A stretch of 64,000 nucleotides of DNA. It comes from an uncultured bacterium. GTDB lineage: Bacteria; Patescibacteriota; Minisyncoccia; Moranbacterales; GWC2-37-73. Under the pieces are notes generated by a model that searched no databases, had not been told where the DNA came from, and was given only the letters and a program-made list of their open reading frames with translations. Made by a program: the position numbers and the translations under genes. Positions 39,786 to 48,799 of this stretch are shown here, in pieces (positions within the stretch are counted from its first letter, which is position 1; every line of letters starts with the position of its first letter). The stretch is from positions 13,136 to 77,135 of the forward strand of contig CAINNK010000008.1 in the NCBI GenBank assembly GCA_903851135.1, written 5' to 3'.

Positions 39786-41006
39786 ATGAACAATCAAAAA
39801 TTGGAACAATTTTTGCAAGATAATAATTTGCCCAAGTTTCGCTTGGGACAAATTCAAAAAGCCATCTTTCAAGACGGAGCTACTTCGTTTGGGGAAATTA
39901 CAACCCTTTCAAAAGATTTGCGAGAAAAAATGGAAAAGGAAATGAGAATCCTTTCTTTTGAGGTTGAAAAAGTTTTGGTGGCCGGTCCTGCCCGCAATGC
40001 TACGCGTAATGTTGCGAATGGCTTTGCTAATAATAACATTTCTTTGTCTCAACAATCTGAAGATAATAACGAGCATAGCGTTGCAGGCGGGGACGGTCAA
40101 TCAATTAAGGCGCTTTTGAAACTTGTTGATGGAAACCTGATTGAAACCGTCCTGATTTCACCCAAGCCGGGCACTTGGTCAGCATGCATTTCTTGCCAGG
40201 TTGGTTGCGCGATGGGTTGCCGCTTTTGCGCCACTGGCAAAATGGGTTTCAAGCGAAATCTGACCGCCGAAGAAATCACCGATCAGATTCTTTTTTGGAA
40301 ACAATACCTTTCTAAAAATCTAAAATCTAAAATCCTAAATCCTAAAACGGATGTTGCTGAAAATAATAAAAAAAATAATTCTGAGCCTTTTGGAATTTGT
40401 AATTTAGAATTTGGAAATTACAATATTGTAAACAATATTGTCTATATGGGTATGGGTGAGCCTTTTAATAATTGGGAAAATGTTTCCCAAAGCATCAATG
40501 ATTTGACAAATGAAAAATTGTTTGGCTTTGGATCGCGCAGTCTTTCGGTTTCAACTTCCGGGATTGCTAGTGGCATTGAAAAAATGTCCAAAGAGTTTCC
40601 GCAAGTAAATCTGGCCATTTCTCTGCATTTTGCCAGTGACGAAAAACGTGACCGTTATATGCCGGTCAACAAAGTTGACAATCTGGAGAATCTAAAAAAA
40701 GCTTTGCAAGAATATTTTCAGGTGACAAAACGAAAAGTTTTTTTGGAATATATTATGCTCGATGGAGTCAATGACACCGCCTTGGATGCCAAAATGCTGG
40801 CGCAGTATTTGCACAGTGTTGGCAATGCACATCTTTTGCATGTGAATTTAATTCGCTATAATGCGACCAGTGTAGATCTGAAACCTTCCTCAAAAAACAG
40901 AACGCAACTTTTCAAAAAAGAATTGGAAAAATATTTCATCAACGCCACCATCCGCAAAAGTTTAGGTGAGGAGATCAAAGGAGCTTGCGGGCAATTGGCC
41001 TCTTAA
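39786..41006 (+). CDS. rlmN: 23S rRNA (A2503-C2)/tRNA methyltransferase RlmN (radical SAM)
   Basis: N-terminus LPKFRLGQIQKAIFQDGATSFGEITTLSKDLREKM. Radical-SAM CQVGCAMGCRFC. C-terminal GACGQL. Contains an about 45-aa in-frame low-complexity insert (NLKSKILNPKTDVAENNKKNNSEPFGICNLEFGNYNIVNN) encoded by (CTAAAAT)n and tttggaatttg repeats at 40316-40440. Confidence 0.9.
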   Translation: MNNQKLEQFLQDNNLPKFRLGQIQKAIFQDGATSFGEITTLSKDLREKMEKEMRILSFEVEKVLVAGPARNATRNVANGFANNNISLSQQSEDNNEHSVAGGDGQSIKALLKLVDGNLIETVLISPKPGTWSACISCQVGCAMGCRFCATGKMGFKRNLTAEEITDQILFWKQYLSKNLKSKILNPKTDVAENNKKNNSEPFGICNLEFGNYNIVNNIVYMGMGEPFNNWENVSQSINDLTNEKLFGFGSRSLSVSTSGIASGIEKMSKEFPQVNLAISLHFASDEKRDRYMPVNKVDNLENLKKALQEYFQVTKRKVFLEYIMLDGVNDTALDAKMLAQYLHSVGNAHLLHVNLIRYNATSVDLKPSSKNRTQLFKKELEKYFINATIRKSLGEEIKGACGQLAS

Positions 41007-41839: not shown

Positions 41840-43480
41840 CTATAACTTTTTCACTAAATACGTGTCCTTTAATTTGTATCCAGCTTTTCGATAATAATTT
41901 CGCACGCCGATGCCGGAGATGACGACAATTTTTTTCAGGCCATATTCTTCTTTGGCGATACGCTCAGCTTCGAGCAGCAGTTTTTTCCCCAGGCCGATAT
42001 GCTGTGGCGATTTGGAATCCTTTTCATCAATTTGGGTCATTTTACCATAGGTGTGAACTTCGCGGATGATAGCTGCGTTTTGAAGAACAGGCAACATTTT
42101 ATACATTTTGTCATTCCCACAGGAACTTGGAATTCGCAAACGCAAAAGGGCAAAAAGTTTTTTCTTGTCTGGGCTGACATATTGCAGAAAAATTTCGCGG
42201 CCATCGGAAGCAGTGTAGTCAATTCGATCCAAAACAATTGATTCTTTGATGGTGTAACCTTCGCGGACTTCACGGCAACGAATGCAGGGACAATTTGACT
42301 GGGGAATAATGATCTGACGTAGATTAGAAACTGTCGGACCAGCGATGATTGAGCAGGTCGGCACATCTCGAATCAGACGAGCAATGCGAACATAGGGAAC
42401 AATCGCCTCATTTTTGATTTTCAAAACCAATTTTTCAAAAATCTTATTCGTCAGTGGTTTGTAGTTTCCATTTTTCCAGATTTTATAGAGTAAGCTGTTT
42501 TTTAAAACGACAGTTGGATAAATTTTGAGCATGTCGGGTTGAAATTGTTGATTTTCAAAGAGGGTCTTAAACATCTCAAAATCCCGCTTGGGGGTTGATC
42601 CTGGCAGTCCTGGCATCATGTGATAGTTGATCTTGAAACCGGCATCCTTGAGCAATTTGGTTGCTTGGATTGTGCTTTGGATAAGATGTCCGCGTTTATT
42701 GAAAACCAAAACATCGTCATAAATGCTTTGCACGCCAAGTTCCACTCGGGTGCAGCCAAGCTCTCGAAAATTGAGAATTTCTTTTTCATTGATATAGTCC
42801 GGCCTGGTTTCCAAAGTTAGCCCAATAATCCGATGTTTAGTCTTCTCATTTTTCTTCTGCTGGATTTCCATTTTATCATTTGCACTTAGCGTTCCACGTT
42901 CCACGTTTTGCATTTTACGTTCACGTTCCACGTTCCACGTTCCACGCTTCGCGTATTCATTGCACGCCTGAAAACACCTCGTGATAAATTTTTTCTGATA
43001 AGCTTTGGGCAGATAGGAAAAAGTTCCGCCCATCACAATCAATTCGATTTTGTCGGTTTTGTGACCATTAAGTTCCAGTGAGCGCAAGCGACTTTGGACT
43101 TGCAAATATGGGTCGAAATGCGAATCAATGGCCCGCATCACGGCCGGCTCATTGGAGAGATAGCTTTTCGGCATTTCTTTTTCACTGGGGCAATAAATGC
43201 ATTTGCCTGGACAAGGATATGATTTGGTTAGCACTGCCACCACAGCCACGCCTGATTGGGTGCGGATGCGACGACTGAGCAGAATTTTTTCGAAAGCGGG
43301 GTTGGGCTTGACGATGTTTTCCAAAACCAAATCATTGTAGCGATCGCGCAAGTCAGCATTGGTTGGAATTGGAAGTTTGTATTGTTTGGAAAGTTTTTTC
43401 TTGAGCTGCAAAAACTCCTCCTGGGTTTCAGGAAGCTCTTCAATTGCCGAGATGATGAAATTGTCGTAAGCTGAATTCAT
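41840..43480 (-). CDS. Elp3-family radical SAM / GNAT acetyltransferase (tRNA U34 carboxymethyl-type modification enzyme homolog)
   Basis: Elp3 hallmarks SYPCPGKCIYCP (radical SAM cluster) and a C-terminal GNAT region (HIGLGKKLLLEAERIAKEEYGLKKIVVISGIGVRNYYRKAGY). 546 aa. Carries an in-frame (GTTCCAC)n-derived insert AKRGTWNVERERKMQNVERGTL (plus-strand 42884-42950). Confidence 0.85.
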   Translation of the reverse strand: MNSAYDNFIISAIEELPETQEEFLQLKKKLSKQYKLPIPTNADLRDRYNDLVLENIVKPNPAFEKILLSRRIRTQSGVAVVAVLTKSYPCPGKCIYCPSEKEMPKSYLSNEPAVMRAIDSHFDPYLQVQSRLRSLELNGHKTDKIELIVMGGTFSYLPKAYQKKFITRCFQACNEYAKRGTWNVERERKMQNVERGTLSANDKMEIQQKKNEKTKHRIIGLTLETRPDYINEKEILNFRELGCTRVELGVQSIYDDVLVFNKRGHLIQSTIQATKLLKDAGFKINYHMMPGLPGSTPKRDFEMFKTLFENQQFQPDMLKIYPTVVLKNSLLYKIWKNGNYKPLTNKIFEKLVLKIKNEAIVPYVRIARLIRDVPTCSIIAGPTVSNLRQIIIPQSNCPCIRCREVREGYTIKESIVLDRIDYTASDGREIFLQYVSPDKKKLFALLRLRIPSSCGNDKMYKMLPVLQNAAIIREVHTYGKMTQIDEKDSKSPQHIGLGKKLLLEAERIAKEEYGLKKIVVISGIGVRNYYRKAGYKLKDTYLVKKL

Positions 43481-44185
43481 ATGAAAAAAGAAATTGCAGA
43501 AAAAATATTAAAGGAAACTGAGATTGGCTATGACTTGATCTCTCAGAAATTTTCTCAAACCAGAAAACATTTTTGGCGCGGTTTGGAGTTCATAAAGGAT
43601 TATACGCACGAAGGCGATAAAGTTTTGGATTTTGGCTGTGGCAACGGGCGTTTGCTTGAATTGCTTGGAGAAAATAGTGCTGAATATTATGGCGTTGATG
43701 TCTCCCAGGCTTTGATTGATTTTGCCAAGCAAAAATATCCCAAAGCTTACTTTTTCAAGATGAACCCCAGTCAAACAAGCTTAGCATTCGAAGCTGAATT
43801 TTTCAATACCATTTATAGTATTGCGGTTTTTCATCATTTTCCTTCTCAAAAATATCGTCAGGATGTCGTAAAGGAACTTTACAATAAAACGAAAAATGGT
43901 GGTCGAATTATTGTCACCGTCTGGTATCTTTTTCAAGAGAGGTACTTCAAAAATATTTTGCAAAATTGGTTTGCAAAATTGCAAGGCAACAGCCAGTTGG
44001 ATTGGAATGATTGCGAAATTTCTTTCACAGATAATCAAGGCAAACGTTTTTGGCGTTTTCACCACGCTTTCACCAAAAGAGAACTGCAGAAACTTTTCCA
44101 AGAGGCTGGCTTTGAAATTGAAAAATGTGAGATTGTGGGCGGGCGAAACATATTGCTGATTGGTAGAAGGGCAGATTCTGGATGA
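43481..44185 (+). CDS. Class I SAM-dependent methyltransferase, Trm9-like (tRNA U34 carboxymethyl methyl-esterifying family)
   Basis: ISQKFSQTRKHFW...FI and VLDFGCGNGRLL parallel Trm9 IAPHFSQTRYKPW...FL and IDVGCGNGKYL. YSIAVFHHFPS...GGRIIVTVWYLFQ parallels Trm9 ISIAVVHHWST...GGQALIYCWALEQ. Start codon abuts the elp3 start (CATATG). Confidence 0.7.
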   Translation: MKKEIAEKILKETEIGYDLISQKFSQTRKHFWRGLEFIKDYTHEGDKVLDFGCGNGRLLELLGENSAEYYGVDVSQALIDFAKQKYPKAYFFKMNPSQTSLAFEAEFFNTIYSIAVFHHFPSQKYRQDVVKELYNKTKNGGRIIVTVWYLFQERYFKNILQNWFAKLQGNSQLDWNDCEISFTDNQGKRFWRFHHAFTKRELQKLFQEAGFEIEKCEIVGGRNILLIGRRADSG

Positions 44186-44395
44186 TAGATTTTAGATTTT
44201 AGAATAAATACGGGTAAGTAGATTCTGGATGATAGATTTTAGATTTTAGAATAAATACGGGTAAGTAGATTCTGGATGATAGATTTTAGATTTTAGAATA
44301 AATACGGGTAAGTAGATTCTGGATTTTAGATTTTAGAATAAATACGGGTAAGTAGATTCTAGATGATAGATTTTAGATTTTAGAAATGATATTAT
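44173..44395. repeat. Tandem repeat array, about 47-bp unit x about 4.5 copies
   Basis: Unit AGATTCTGGATGATAGATTTTAGATTTTAGAATAAATACGGGTAAGT repeated head-to-tail. The 4th copy lacks 7 nt and the 5th is partial. Overlaps the 3' end of the methyltransferase gene. No unique spacers. Confidence 0.85.
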
Positions 44396-44401
44396 AAAAG
44401 C

Positions 44402-44788
44402 ATGGAAAAAATAAAAAAATTTACAGATTTAGTTGTTTGGCAAGAAGGTCATAAATTGGTTATTCTTATCTATGATATAACTAAAAAATTTCCCAAGGAA
44501 GAGTGATATTCTTTAACTGATCAAATGCGAAGAGCTGCAACCTCTGTTACTTCAAATATAGCCGAAGGTTTTGGTAGGCAAGGTTATAAGGAAAAGATTC
44601 AATTTTATCACTTAGCACTCGGATCTTTGACTGAATTAGAAAATCAGATTTTTATCGCAAGGGATGTCACGTATTTAAATTCTTCTGATTTTGAAATTTT
44701 AATGAATAAAGCCAGTGATGCTCATAGATTATTAAATGGAATCATAAAAAAATCTAAAGAGTATCTTAATTTAAAATCTAAGTTATAG
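44402..44788 (+). pseudogene. Four-helix-bundle protein (23S rRNA intervening-sequence protein family) interrupted by an in-frame TGA at 44504-44506
   Basis: MEKIKKFTDLVVWQEGHKLVILIYDITKKFPKEE-[TGA]-YSLTDQMRRAATSVTSNIAEGFGRQ matches the family consensus (FPKEEK/RYGLTSQLRRAAVSI). The stop replaces an expected AAR/AGA codon. The downstream 87-aa ORF (44525-44788) is in the same frame. Confidence 0.6.
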
Positions 44789-44831
44789 AAATATATTCTA
44801 AAATCTAGAATCTAAAATCTATATTCTATTA

Positions 44832-46150: not shown

Positions 46151-46264
46151 TTTGGTGAGGTTAAAAACTGGTGGTACCAATGGGTAGCCAGTTTTTTTAT
46201 TTTCAAAATTTGACGCATTTCATTTTTATGTTAAAATACCCCTAGGAGGTATACAAATAAAAAT

Positions 46265-46349
46265 GTCATTCTGAACTTGTTTCAGAATCTACTTTCTTTA
46301 TTTAACAATACTGCCTGTAATCGAGATCCTGAAACAAGTTCAGGATGAC
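46265..46349. promoter_or_regulatory. Paired hairpin motif (GTCATTCTGAACTTGTTTCAGAATC ... GATCCTGAAACAAGTTCAGGATGAC) upstream of csoR; same family as 6185-6289
   Basis: Two 25-bp internally palindromic arms in inverted orientation, about 35 bp apart, 45-130 bp upstream of the CsoR-family gene. Confidence 0.35.
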
Positions 46350-46392
46350 ACAAAAGAATATTCCTAATTCTTAAAGGATAACTCCTAAACAT

Positions 46393-48428: not shown

Positions 48429-48522
48429 TGTATACTCCTGATTCAGGGTTAGTTTTTTCTTTTCTAAAATTTTTAAAAAACAAAAAATCCATGAGAGGAT
48501 TTTTGATCTTTTGGTTTTTGGG

Positions 48523-48597
48523 GTGGGCGTGCCTAGATTCGAACTGGGGACCTCGTCATTATCAGTGACGCGCTCTAACCAACTGAGCTACACGCCC
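48523..48597 (-). tRNA. tRNA-Ile (anticodon GAU)
   Basis: Minus-strand sequence GGGCGTGTAGCTCAGTTGGTTAGAGCGCGTCACTGATAATGACGAGGTCCCCAGTTCGAATCTAGGCACGCCCA gives a cloverleaf with a 7-bp acceptor stem and anticodon loop CUGAUAA. One C-A mismatch in the T-stem. Confidence 0.8.
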
Positions 48598-48726
48598 GTA
48601 TGTGGACCGGACAGGACATTTTACGTCGCTTTCGTTCCTTGGAAACCCATGGTTTCCAAAACCTTCCTCCAACGGAAAACTCCCGTTTTCCGACCCTTTC
48701 CCGTTCAAGTTGAAAAAAGAGTTTTG

Positions 48727-48799
48727 TGGACCGGACAGGACTTGAACCCGCTACCTCCTCAGTGCAAATGAGGCGCTCTACCAGGTGAGCTACCGGCCC
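48727..48799 (-). tRNA. tRNA-Ala (anticodon UGC)
   Basis: GGGCCGGTAGCTCACCTGGTAGAGCGCCTCATTTGCACTGAGGAGGTAGCGGGTTCAAGTCCTGTCCGGTCCA. Canonical cloverleaf, G3:U70-type Ala acceptor, anticodon loop UUUGCAC. Confidence 0.9.

Follow-up and report, generated by a model that had tools for sequence, protein, structure and literature searches.

A Trm9-family methyltransferase head to head with Elp3 in Patescibacteria: a candidate bacterial mcm5U-type wobble-uridine module

In textbooks and reviews, mcm5U-type modification of the wobble uridine is a eukaryotic trait that has, since 2018, also been assigned to some archaea, whereas bacteria use the MnmE/MnmG route. The standard bacterial systems (MnmE-MnmG with MnmC, and MnmL (YtqA)/MnmM) act on the same tRNA position and serve the same general purpose as the gene pair described here, but they build aminomethyl-type side chains from glycine or ammonium and employ other methyltransferases, whereas the Elp3 route installs a carboxymethyl group derived from acetyl-CoA. 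In eukaryotes, Elongator (Elp1-6) and then Trm9-Trm112 or ALKBH8-TRMT112 produce mcm5U34 and mcm5s2U34. Archaea (Haloferax volcanii HVO_1032; Sulfolobus solfataricus) have Elp3 together with Trm9-Trm112, and their Elp3 stands alone; prokaryotic Elp3s are reported to lack Elp1, 2, 4, 5, and 6 (PMC6367351). An Elp3 and Trm9 gene cluster has already been noted in S. solfataricus (PMC2584109), and mcm5U has been demonstrated in H. volcanii (PMC6144793). Because both are documented in archaea, the novelty of a bacterial counterpart would be an mcm5U-type pathway outside eukaryotes and archaea.

The one bacterial Elp3 that has been studied is DmcElp3 of Dehalococcoides mccartyi (PDB 5l7j). A 2020 review presents bacterial Elp3 as a curiosity of Dehalococcoides: DmcElp3 is a rare case with weak activity in vitro, bacterial xcm5U is without evidence, and a Trm9 partner goes unmentioned (PMC7663514). 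A 2017 review reported no bacterial gene resembling the Trm112-dependent methyltransferases (PMC5372719). Our literature search found no paper on an Elp3 plus Trm9 pathway in bacteria, and some automated annotations use the names TRM9 or ALKBH8. Here, we analyzed a 64,000-nucleotide stretch of DNA (the window) from a CPR bacterium, in which an Elp3 and a relative of Trm9, that is, the same two catalytic families as in eukaryotes and acting in the same predicted order, sit head to head. Because of this arrangement, the mcm5U pathway probably exists in bacteria as well.

The Elp3 homolog

The minus strand of the window encodes an Elp3 homolog of 546 aa (41840..43480) with an N-terminal extension, a radical SAM domain, a zinc-cysteine linker, and a GNAT/KAT domain. 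The plus strand encodes a class I SAM-dependent methyltransferase of 234 aa (43481..44185), assigned to the Trm9 family on homology and an AlphaFold2 model. Both open reading frames were found where an earlier note, made from the sequence, had placed a divergent pair. Its description of the first gene as a full-length Elp3 with radical SAM and GNAT domains also held: the protein scored 546.8 bits against TIGR01211 (cut-off 350), residues 18-546 aligned to model positions 12-522, and the cysteines and the acetyl-CoA motif are intact. Pfam matches were Radical_SAM and Radical_SAM_C. Solved archaeal, bacterial, and eukaryotic Elp3s matched at E = 1e-99 to 1e-117, the closest being M. infernus Elp3 (6ia8; E = 7.5e-117, residues 65-546), which likewise has an N-terminal extension. 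DmcElp3 (5l7j; E = 1.3e-111) has the same domains and motifs but lacks the ~65-residue N-terminal extension of the window protein (PMC6367351).

Three motifs could be aligned to the solved Elp3s, all on the minus strand. First, the radical SAM iron-sulfur cluster motif CPGKCIYC (Cys90/Cys94/Cys97, CxxxCxxC; 43190..43213) aligns with CPHGKCIFC in M. infernus Elp3 and CPGKCIYC in D. mccartyi Elp3. Second, CPCIRC (Cys397/Cys399/Cys402; 42275..42292) is the counterpart of CRCIRC in both solved prokaryotic Elp3s and represents the zinc-binding motif of bacterial and archaeal Elp3, a three-cysteine motif described in PMC6367351. Third, the acetyl-CoA-binding motif of the KAT domain, QHIGLG (residues 493-498; 41987..42004), aligns with QHMGYG and QHRGLG, and the KAT-domain alignment to 6ia8 and 5l7j reaches the last residue. 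By homology, which also underlies its predicted activity, this 546-aa product belongs to the stand-alone Elp3s.

We also considered MnmL (YtqA), a radical SAM enzyme related to the catalytic domain of Elp3, as the identity of this protein. TIGR01212, the MnmL/YtqA model, matched at 73.1 bits, below its cut-off of 180, while a KAT domain is present and the Elp3 model was passed; this candidate was rejected.

One segment of Elp3 is without counterpart in the solved structures: residues 178-202 (KRGTWNVERERKMQNVERGT...; 42875..42949, minus strand) form a hypervariable linker insertion that is a gap in the 6ia8 alignment and is mostly encoded by a CGTTCCA heptamer repeat (TRF: period 7, 8.3 copies, 42890-42946). 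The methyltransferase gene ends in five codons and a stop codon that derive from copy one of a 47-bp tandem repeat. Taken together, a 25-residue repeat-encoded insertion disrupting Elp3 and a repeat replacing the tail of the methyltransferase could mark the genes as relics, with one or both products inactive. We regard this as extremely unlikely. Both frames are intact and full length with all catalytic motifs in place, the linker differs in length and sequence in every Moranbacteria relative and lies outside the conserved blocks, the C-terminal extension of the methyltransferase begins beyond the last conserved strand, and about 24 contigs, obtained from several samples, carry an identical protein.

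The methyltransferase and its Trm9 residues

Because Pfam and NCBIfam contain no Trm9-specific model, the methyltransferase has only generic matches there, or matches below threshold. Its best sequence match in the PDB is Yarrowia Trm9 (1.8e-9 with the single protein and 3e-13 with the family profile). In the reverse direction, a profile of named Trm9 proteins, for which fungal sequences served as the reference, gave 76.4 bits for the window protein and 41.6 bits for the highest-scoring non-Trm9 methyltransferase, with the PDB as the comparison set. Hence, the reciprocal search that had been proposed to separate Trm9 from other methyltransferases pointed to Trm9 both ways. Against the fungal profile, the family scored 61-124 bits, a range that holds for the window protein, for the 120 close homologs, and, with two exceptions, for the 83 locus ORFs that match the profile; 4 of 150 representatives at 50% identity, mostly fragments, scored 22-54 bits. 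Alignment of the bacterial family to fungal Trm9 by hhalign spanned 204 columns, beginning in the N-terminal helix and running through to the C-terminus, with probability 100 and E = 1.2e-40; the window protein is about 21% identical to fungal Trm9. The AlphaFold2 model has a mean pLDDT of 96.4 and a Rossmann-like strand order. RPA2492 (PDB 3e23), an uncharacterized class I methyltransferase, resembles the protein at the level of fold only (18% identity) and was absent among the sequence and profile matches listed for the window protein, its family, and the Trm9 profile. IMG automated annotation labels several homologs TRM9 or 'alkB homolog 8' (ALKBH8).

Under a competing explanation, the protein belongs with the generic UbiE/UbiG/Methyltransf_11-type enzymes that act on small molecules, and it neighbors Elp3 without sharing a functional pathway; grouping with such enzymes had been named beforehand as an outcome against the Trm9 proposal. 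The protein grouped with Trm9 instead (the profile and hhalign results above), and models of quinone methyltransferases failed: TIGR01934 scored 40.4 against a cut-off of 158, TIGR01983 37.3 against 103, and PRK00216 40.7 against 216. Pfam Ubie_methyltran was slightly above its cut-off (27.9 bits versus 20.1) and ranked seventh among the Pfam families matched. The family's scores against the Trm9 profile are about double those of any other methyltransferase of solved structure. Trm9-specific residues beyond the SAM core (FSxTR, HH, RYxH, and the C-terminal Asn) are also kept. With the linkage to Elp3 described below, these results largely refute the generic-enzyme explanation, which we consider very unlikely.

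To define the conserved positions, we used two sets of sequences, namely 60 diverse family members and an alignment of CPR, Dehalococcoidia-type, and fungal Trm9 sequences. All motifs previously quoted from the protein were recovered: FSQTR (24-28), W32, LDFGCGNG (49-56), SIAVFHH (113-119), GG (140-141), and W148. FSQTR (43550..43564; this and the following features lie on the plus strand) aligns to the TR of Yarrowia Trm9, so that Arg28, invariant in both sets, is the equivalent of yeast Arg29, whose role in yeast Trm9 has been described (PMC4678810). LDFGCGNG (43625..43648) is SAM-binding motif I, with G52, C53, and G54 invariant. Asp73 (in GVD at the end of strand 2; 43697-43699) is invariant and corresponds to yeast Asp72; the D72A variant does not bind SAM (PMC4678810). 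After strand 4, His118-His119 (43832..43837) align to the HH of Yarrowia Trm9 and are the equivalents of yeast His115 and His116, which are proposed to recognize the carboxylate and uracil, H116A being inactive (PMC4678810). Both histidines are at least 90% conserved among the 60 diverse members, and His119 is invariant in the CPR, Dehalococcoidia-type, and fungal alignment. Trp148, again invariant, and Gln152 (WYLFQ; 43922..43936) correspond to yeast Trp145, whose alanine variant is inactive (PMC4678810), and Gln149; Gln152 aligns with Gln160 in Yarrowia numbering.

The beta-hairpin insertion (44009..44065) was placed by hhalign column mapping and by the strands of the model (177-183 and 189-195). 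Asp177...Phe182 represents the DVxVPW segment, which includes yeast Trp168, and Arg192-Phe-His-His195 represents RYYH, which includes yeast Arg241 and Tyr243. Arg192, the equivalent of Arg241, is invariant across the CPR, Dehalococcoidia-type, and fungal alignment. At the Trp168 position, the window protein has Phe182 and its relatives mostly Phe or Trp; at the Tyr243 position, it has His194, and the residue varies across the CPR family. Near the C-terminus, Asn223 (44147..44149) is invariant in both sets and aligns to Asn222 (Yarrowia numbering), itself invariant in the fungal alignment; it is the equivalent of yeast Asn271, which is proposed to recognize uracil O2/N3 and whose alanine variant is impaired (PMC4678810). 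Overall, 8 of the 9 residues that affect function in yeast Trm9, and Gln149 in addition, are kept or conservatively replaced, the exception being Tyr243, and six (Arg28, Asp73, His119, Trp148, Arg192, and Asn223) are invariant in CPR, Dehalococcoidia-type, and fungal sequences. Like eukaryotic Trm9, the protein has the FSxTR N-terminal helix, HH, the Trp/Gln pair that follows strand 5, and the C-terminal Asn; it also keeps an RYxH-type hairpin, with Phe and His at the Trp168 and Tyr243 positions. We assign it to the Trm9 family as a bacterial member, with an activity predicted from homology and from its linkage to Elp3.

Haloferax and eukaryotic Trm9 require Trm112 and are inactive without it (PMC6144793). 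In a further difference from the eukaryotic system, the pair shows no linkage to Trm112: none was seen among the conserved neighbors of the methyltransferase, and a zinc-knuckle pattern search of the 64-kb window and 85 loci found no Trm112-like gene. Since no such partner is conserved beside the pair, the methyltransferase may work alone, which would set it apart, together with its bacterial host, from archaeal Trm9, for which Trm112 is needed in vivo. It would also offer structural work a possibly Trm112-independent Trm9.

Linkage to Elp3 and the proposed pathway

The conservation of the gene neighborhood was surveyed from the methyltransferase side, by fetching its flanks in the 80 best-matching species-level CPR genomes that carry it. 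In 68 of these 80 genomes the fetched flank contained Elp3, which was divergently oriented and upstream of the methyltransferase in 63; the flanks of the other 12 loci showed no Elp3. At one of the latter (L006), a close relative whose BacA is 94% identical, the methyltransferase follows a flavoprotein gene. Elp3 is the sole conserved neighbor (61 of 81 loci, whereas the next most frequent cluster is found at 13 of 81), and the gene order of NUDIX, RlmN, CsoR, TrxR, and BacA is lost outside Moranbacteria. While this other synteny disappears, adjacency to Elp3 holds down to 31% methyltransferase identity, across numerous lineages of Patescibacteria and on Dehalococcoidia-like contigs, which argues further against a generic enzyme that merely neighbors Elp3.

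In the reverse search, from Dehalococcoides-type Elp3, 52 metagenome contigs were testable; 45 of them carry the methyltransferase, adjacent and divergent in 38. On such contigs, where Elp3 is 60-92% identical to DmcElp3, the same Trm9-like gene lies divergently upstream; in its Dehalococcoidia-type form, the methyltransferase has WYSFR and GCG(C/H)G at the positions of FSxTR and GCGNG in the CPR type. The earlier note had named lack of co-occurrence with Elp3 as evidence against a shared pathway, and co-occurrence was found in both directions. Its remark that Elp3 is rare in bacteria stands for cultured bacteria and the literature but not for uncultivated Patescibacteria and Dehalococcoidia-like lineages, in which the pair is common. 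As a conserved cassette, the module extends beyond the window genome: it is found in diverse Patescibacteria and also beside Dehalococcoides-type Elp3.

We suggest that the two genes probably form a module that modifies tRNA wobble uridine U34, a chemistry proposed from the sequences. Elp3, like the archaeal enzyme, would use its radical SAM cluster and acetyl-CoA to place a carboxymethyl group onto C5 of U34, giving cm5U34. The methyltransferase would then use SAM to methyl-esterify the carboxyl of cm5U34, giving mcm5U34, possibly en route to mcm5s2U, and may do so without a Trm112 partner. The kept Trm9 residues Arg28, His118/His119, Trp148, Arg192, and Asn223 would position the carboxylate and the uracil ring.

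Alternatively, the pair might modify U34 with a methyltransferase step or an end product that differs from eukaryotic mcm5U. The methyl ester could be transient on the way to an amide or another derivative, the side chain could be another Elp3-dependent one, or the pair could resemble Bacillus MnmL (YtqA)/MnmM and finish mnm5U. The sub-cut-off match of the window Elp3 to TIGR01212 is in line with this, as it indicates that bacteria use radical SAM enzymes resembling Elp3 in other routes to xm5U, and so are the two changed Trm9 positions (Tyr243 to His and Trp168 to Phe). In addition, cm5U does not build up in Haloferax trm9 mutants, so the downstream chemistry in prokaryotes is incompletely understood (PMC6144793). 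Against this stand the full KAT domain and the passing of the Elp3 model but not the MnmL model, the invariance of Arg28, His119, and Arg192, which would position the carboxylate, and the PDB sequence matches of the methyltransferase, among which there is no MnmM-like structure. We think a different product unlikely. The favored mcm5U34 pathway can be addressed directly: D. mccartyi is cultivable, its Elp3 has already been purified, and Trm9 assays on yeast mutant tRNA exist.

The shared start junction

The abutting start codons of the pair form CATATG (43478..43483, without strand) within GAATTCATATGAAAAAA, with CAT at 43478-43480 as the Elp3 start and ATG at 43481-43483 as the methyltransferase start. 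Read directly in the window, this is the single palindrome with zero intergenic bases that the earlier note had described. Relatives back both starts: the Elp3 N-terminus is kept (MNSAYDNFIISAIEEL in the window versus MSQSYDNYIISAINEL and MNKAYDNFIISAIEEL), and M1 of the methyltransferase is invariant in an alignment of relatives.

The head-to-head junction is a conserved feature of the pair, with CATG at 18 loci and CATATG at 4 (22 of 64 pairs). The methyltransferase is separated from its divergent upstream neighbor, mostly Elp3, by a median of 4 bp, with 25 of 55 gaps ≤0. For the remaining divergent pairs at these loci, taken as a control, the median is 134.5 bp, with 5 of 60 gaps ≤0 (Fisher p = 5e-6). 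Start-to-start abutment thus exceeds chance, and the pair is an unusually clear example of divergent genes kept start to start; this physical coupling also distinguishes it from the eukaryotic system. Because the start codons very often abut or overlap, the promoter and 5' end of each gene must lie within the other gene, and promoters so placed would couple the expression of Elp3 and the methyltransferase.

A wider reading joins these observations, and we offer it tentatively, as a possibility that we rather doubt. Elp3 followed by Trm9 would be the main or only xm5U34 route in Patescibacteria and Dehalococcoidia, replacing MnmE/MnmG; the Trm9 would be free of Trm112; and the start-codon overlap (CATG or CATATG) would be a selected regulatory device that balances both enzymes, for example, through back-to-back promoters within each other's coding sequence or through leaderless transcripts. 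If so, mcm5U-type wobble modification would be a trait of all three domains, either very old or moved as a two-gene cassette.

Some gene callers place the Elp3 start 69 nt further downstream, at a TTG codon, which yields a protein of 523 aa; against this shorter call, the TIGR01211 alignment is already underway at residue 18 of the 546-aa protein.

Homology of the window methyltransferase to Trm9

The earlier note, a reading from sequence alone, had described two divergent ORFs at 41840-44185 as a possible bacterial mcm5U-type module of Elp3 and Trm9. Both ORFs are present exactly where it placed them: Elp3 at 41840-43480 on the minus strand (546 aa) and a class I methyltransferase at 43481-44185 on the plus strand (234 aa). 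The 546-aa protein scored 546.8 bits against the NCBIfam Elp3 model TIGR01211 (cut-off 350) and matched every solved Elp3, with E = 7.5e-117 for the Methanocaldococcus infernus enzyme, E = 1.3e-111 for that of Dehalococcoides mccartyi (DmcElp3), and E of about 1e-100 for Elongator subunit 3 of mouse, human, and yeast. Its radical SAM cysteines (Cys90, Cys94, and Cys97), the three-cysteine zinc motif of prokaryotic Elp3 (CPCIRC, residues 397-402), and the acetyl-CoA motif (QHIGLG, residues 493-498) are intact. An N-terminal extension of ~65 residues is shared with archaeal Elp3 but is missing from the Dehalococcoides enzyme. Residues 178-202, whose coding sequence is mostly the heptamer CGTTCCA repeated eight times, have no counterpart in the solved structures. 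Because every Moranbacteria relative examined has a linker of different length and sequence here, we read the segment as a tolerated variable loop rather than as damage.

Pfam and NCBIfam could not decide whether the methyltransferase is a Trm9, since the former returned only generic methyltransferase domains and all matches to the latter fell far below cut-off. Among solved structures, the best sequence match was the Trm9 chain of the Yarrowia lipolytica Trm9-Trm112 complex (E = 1.8e-9 with the single protein and 3e-13 with the family profile). For the reciprocal search that the earlier note had called for, named fungal Trm9 sequences were recovered with the Yarrowia chain as query, and sixteen of them were aligned into a profile. 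This profile gave 76.4 bits to the window protein, and no PDB methyltransferase other than Trm9 exceeded 41.6 bits; the window methyltransferase family (close homologs and locus copies) scored 61-124 bits, with four outlying representatives at 22-54. When 60 diverse members of the family were compared, profile against profile, with the fungal Trm9 alignment, the result was a probability of 100 and E = 1.2e-40 over 204 columns, from the N-terminal helix through the C-terminus.

Mutagenesis of yeast Trm9 has pinpointed residues important for activity (PMC4678810), and every one of them has a counterpart position in the window protein. Yeast Arg29, Asp72, Trp145, Arg241, and Asn271 correspond to window Arg28, Asp73, Trp148, Arg192, and Asn223, all invariant, and yeast His115 and His116 correspond to His118 (at least 90% conserved) and His119 (invariant across all groups). 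Yeast Gln149 aligns with Gln152. Two positions are substituted, which counts against the Trm9 reading: Trp168 is replaced by Phe182, still an aromatic residue, and Tyr243 by His194, which is not conserved. An AlphaFold2 model of the methyltransferase is confident (pLDDT 96.4) and contains a two-stranded hairpin bearing Arg192. Several homologs already carry the name "TRM9" or "alkB homolog 8" from automated annotation in IMG, and in other sources they appear as UbiE or plain methyltransferase.

Genomic linkage of the methyltransferase to Elp3

The methyltransferase family is large, with 187 clusters at 50% identity reaching E <= 1e-30. We scanned one genome per species, which yielded 80 loci with methyltransferase identities from 68% down to 31%. 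By record title, most of these loci come from many different Patescibacteria lineages; about a dozen titles conflict with this assignment (Bdellovibrionales or Gammaproteobacteria). The gene-neighbourhood check proposed in the earlier note also came out in favor of a linked pair, as the fetched flank contains Elp3 in 68 of the 80 species loci. Elp3 is divergent from and upstream of the methyltransferase in 63 and arranged with it in a same-strand, operon-like manner in one. When all neighbouring ORFs were clustered, Elp3 was the only conserved neighbour (within 5 kb in 61/81 loci; next cluster, 13/81), and no conserved third partner, whether Trm112 or a thiolation enzyme, was found among them. 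Outside Moranbacteria, the pair has lost the neighbours that it has in the window (NUDIX, RlmN, CsoR, thioredoxin reductase, and UppP).

The remaining 12 of 80 loci have no Elp3 in the flank, which counts against the pathway reading, and they include one close relative of the window organism. In this relative (L006, 6724-8741), the downstream UppP, CsoR, and TrxR are 91-98% identical to those of the window, the methyltransferase is only 68% identical and lies downstream, on the same strand, of genes for a 417-aa flavoprotein and an Obg GTPase, and there is no Elp3 within 8 kb of the methyltransferase. This configuration suggests a recent rearrangement or replacement at the locus. The single same-strand case is a locus titled Gracilibacteria (L065, 444-2643), with the two genes 13 bp apart. 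Several pair-holding records (L055, L008, L012, L013, L015, L037, L050, L063, and L069) carry titles ("Pacearchaeota archaeon", "uncultured Bdellovibrionales", or "uncultured Gammaproteobacteria") at odds with their Patescibacteria-like gene content; they may be mislabelled bins or true cases outside Patescibacteria.

We also searched in the reverse direction from another lineage, running the D. mccartyi Elp3 sequence (taken from a PDB alignment) against metagenome contigs. This gave 80 loci with a mean of 50% G+C and Elp3 proteins 60-92% identical to DmcElp3. Fifty-two of these loci extend 750 bp or more upstream of Elp3; 45 of the 52 contain a methyltransferase of the same family, which in 38 of the 45 is adjacent and divergent to the Dehalococcoides-type Elp3. 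At the closest locus, where Elp3 is 92% identical to DmcElp3 and has the short N-terminus of that enzyme, ~45 bp separate the two genes. The Dehalococcoidia-type methyltransferases have the catalytic residues of the window family but carry the N-terminal motif WYSFR instead of FSxTR.

The start-to-start junction

The two genes abut in the sequence GAATTCATATGAAAAAA, where CAT (43478-43480) is the complement of the Elp3 start codon and directly adjoins the ATG (43481-43483) of the methyltransferase, forming the CATATG with zero intergenic bases that had been seen in the first reading. Some gene callers use a TTG start for Elp3 69 nt further in (523 aa), which would leave a 69-bp spacer. We rejected this start because the N-terminal 23 residues are kept in relatives, which have the peptide MNSAYDNFIISAIEEL in common; the alignment to the Elp3 family model, which begins already at residue 18 of the 546-aa protein, also counts against it. 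On the other side, all close homologs of the methyltransferase share its Met1.

A junction of this kind recurs across species, and CATATG is one of its forms. In a survey of 64 divergent pairs from different species, the junction was CATG, with two bases common to both start codons, in 18, CATATG as in the window in 4, another overlap in 4, and a gap of 1-20 nt in 12. As a control, one simple ORF caller was run on every divergent pair of the same loci. The median gap was 4 bp for the pairs upstream of the methyltransferase (n = 55; Elp3 in most loci) versus 134.5 bp for other divergent pairs (n = 60). Gaps of <= 0 occurred in 25/55 versus 5/60 pairs (Fisher's exact test, p = 5e-6), and gaps of <= 20 nt in 37/55 versus 8/60 (p = 3e-9).

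A start-to-start junction leaves no intergenic space, and therefore the promoter and 5' end of each gene must lie within the other gene. We infer that such buried promoters couple the expression of Elp3 and the methyltransferase. A promoter and terminator scan of the window junction gave background-level signals, and promoter elements were not found there. The junction also has no Shine-Dalgarno motif, which we rejected as evidence for leaderless mRNAs because only 8 of the 50 gene starts in the whole window are preceded by such a motif within 18 nt. This organism seems to initiate translation largely without it.

Proposed function and surrounding sequence

The mcm5U pathway is well known in eukaryotes. 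Trm9 elsewhere depends on Trm112, and the failure to find a Trm112-like gene here counts against the proposed function, although weakly, with 64 kb of the genome visible. A zinc-knuckle pattern search of the window and 85 loci returned three unconvincing small ORFs, none in the window. We suggest that Elp3 alone, as in archaea, would form cm5U34 on a set of U34 tRNAs by means of SAM-derived radicals and acetyl-CoA, and that the Trm9-family enzyme would then methylate the carboxylate with SAM as donor to yield mcm5U. The Trm9 model in PMC4678810 suggests by analogy that Arg28, His119, and Arg192 would hold the carboxylate in place, that His118 and Asn223 would recognize the uracil, and that Trp148 would stack on it. 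The analysis establishes homology, conservation of the catalytic residues, and genomic linkage; we infer the two reactions, the tRNAs they act on, and a Trm9 that works without Trm112. D. mccartyi is culturable, so the proposed role of the pair is directly testable.

mcm5U and its dependence on Trm9-Trm112 have been demonstrated in Haloferax volcanii (PMC6144793), and clustering of Elp3 and Trm9 genes has been reported in Sulfolobus (PMC2584109). For bacteria, a 2017 review found homologs of Trm112-partner methyltransferases undetectable in the genomes (PMC5372719), a 2020 review placed Elp3 in one bacterial clade without evidence for xcm5U (PMC7663514), and a 2026 paper states merely that "numerous bacteria" have Elp3 (PMC13315578). 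Our literature search, whose scope did not extend to the 2016 DmcElp3 study, found no paper on the candidate phyla radiation (CPR) that mentions Elp3 or Trm9 in it, and nothing relevant on MnmG in CPR/Patescibacteria. The enzymes and the pathway are already known; the conserved bacterial cassette appears not to have been described before, apart from unremarked automated labels.

By the names that close homologs carry, the host belongs to the Moranbacteria, within the CPR (Patescibacteria). The window has 39% G+C, and its content other than the pair is housekeeping in character: four aminoacyl-tRNA synthetases, GatB, UvrA, ribosomal proteins, a copper ATPase, and an Nramp transporter. The genes for tRNA-Ile(GAT) and tRNA-Ala(TGC) lie together at 48522-48799 on the minus strand. 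This pair usually sits within the rRNA operon spacer; no rRNA gene is present in the 64-kb window. A 47-bp tandem repeat (44173-44385; 4.7 copies, 91% matches) overlaps the last 13 nt of the methyltransferase gene and provides its final codons (ADSG) and stop; homologs stop a few residues sooner, at GRK or GKK. Similar heptamer runs, TAGATTT and TCTAAAA, recur at 44792-44829. A 23S_rRNA_IVP (four-helix-bundle) family gene (44403-44788) is interrupted by an in-frame TGA near 44505 (...FPKEE*YSLTDQMRRAATSV...) and is also called as 34-aa and 87-aa pieces in other assemblies; a pseudogene, a sequencing error, or read-through may account for this.

Conserved proteins of these genomes carry in-frame insertions resembling translated repeat elements. 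The heptamer-repeat insertion in the window Elp3 (42875-42949) occupies the same linker site as a "HPEFISGS...MLKQVQHD" insertion in the Elp3 of two other loci (L004 and L012). Five methyltransferase homologs (P0023, P0053, P0056, P0065, and P0113) have insertions, for example "CHSGLDPES...RFHGNDT" and "SFRSAGSR", and a "CHPELVSGS" peptide occurs in a minus-strand ORF in the intergenic gap 46151-46392 of the window. RlmN (39786-41006) is likewise ~54 aa longer than in a relative.
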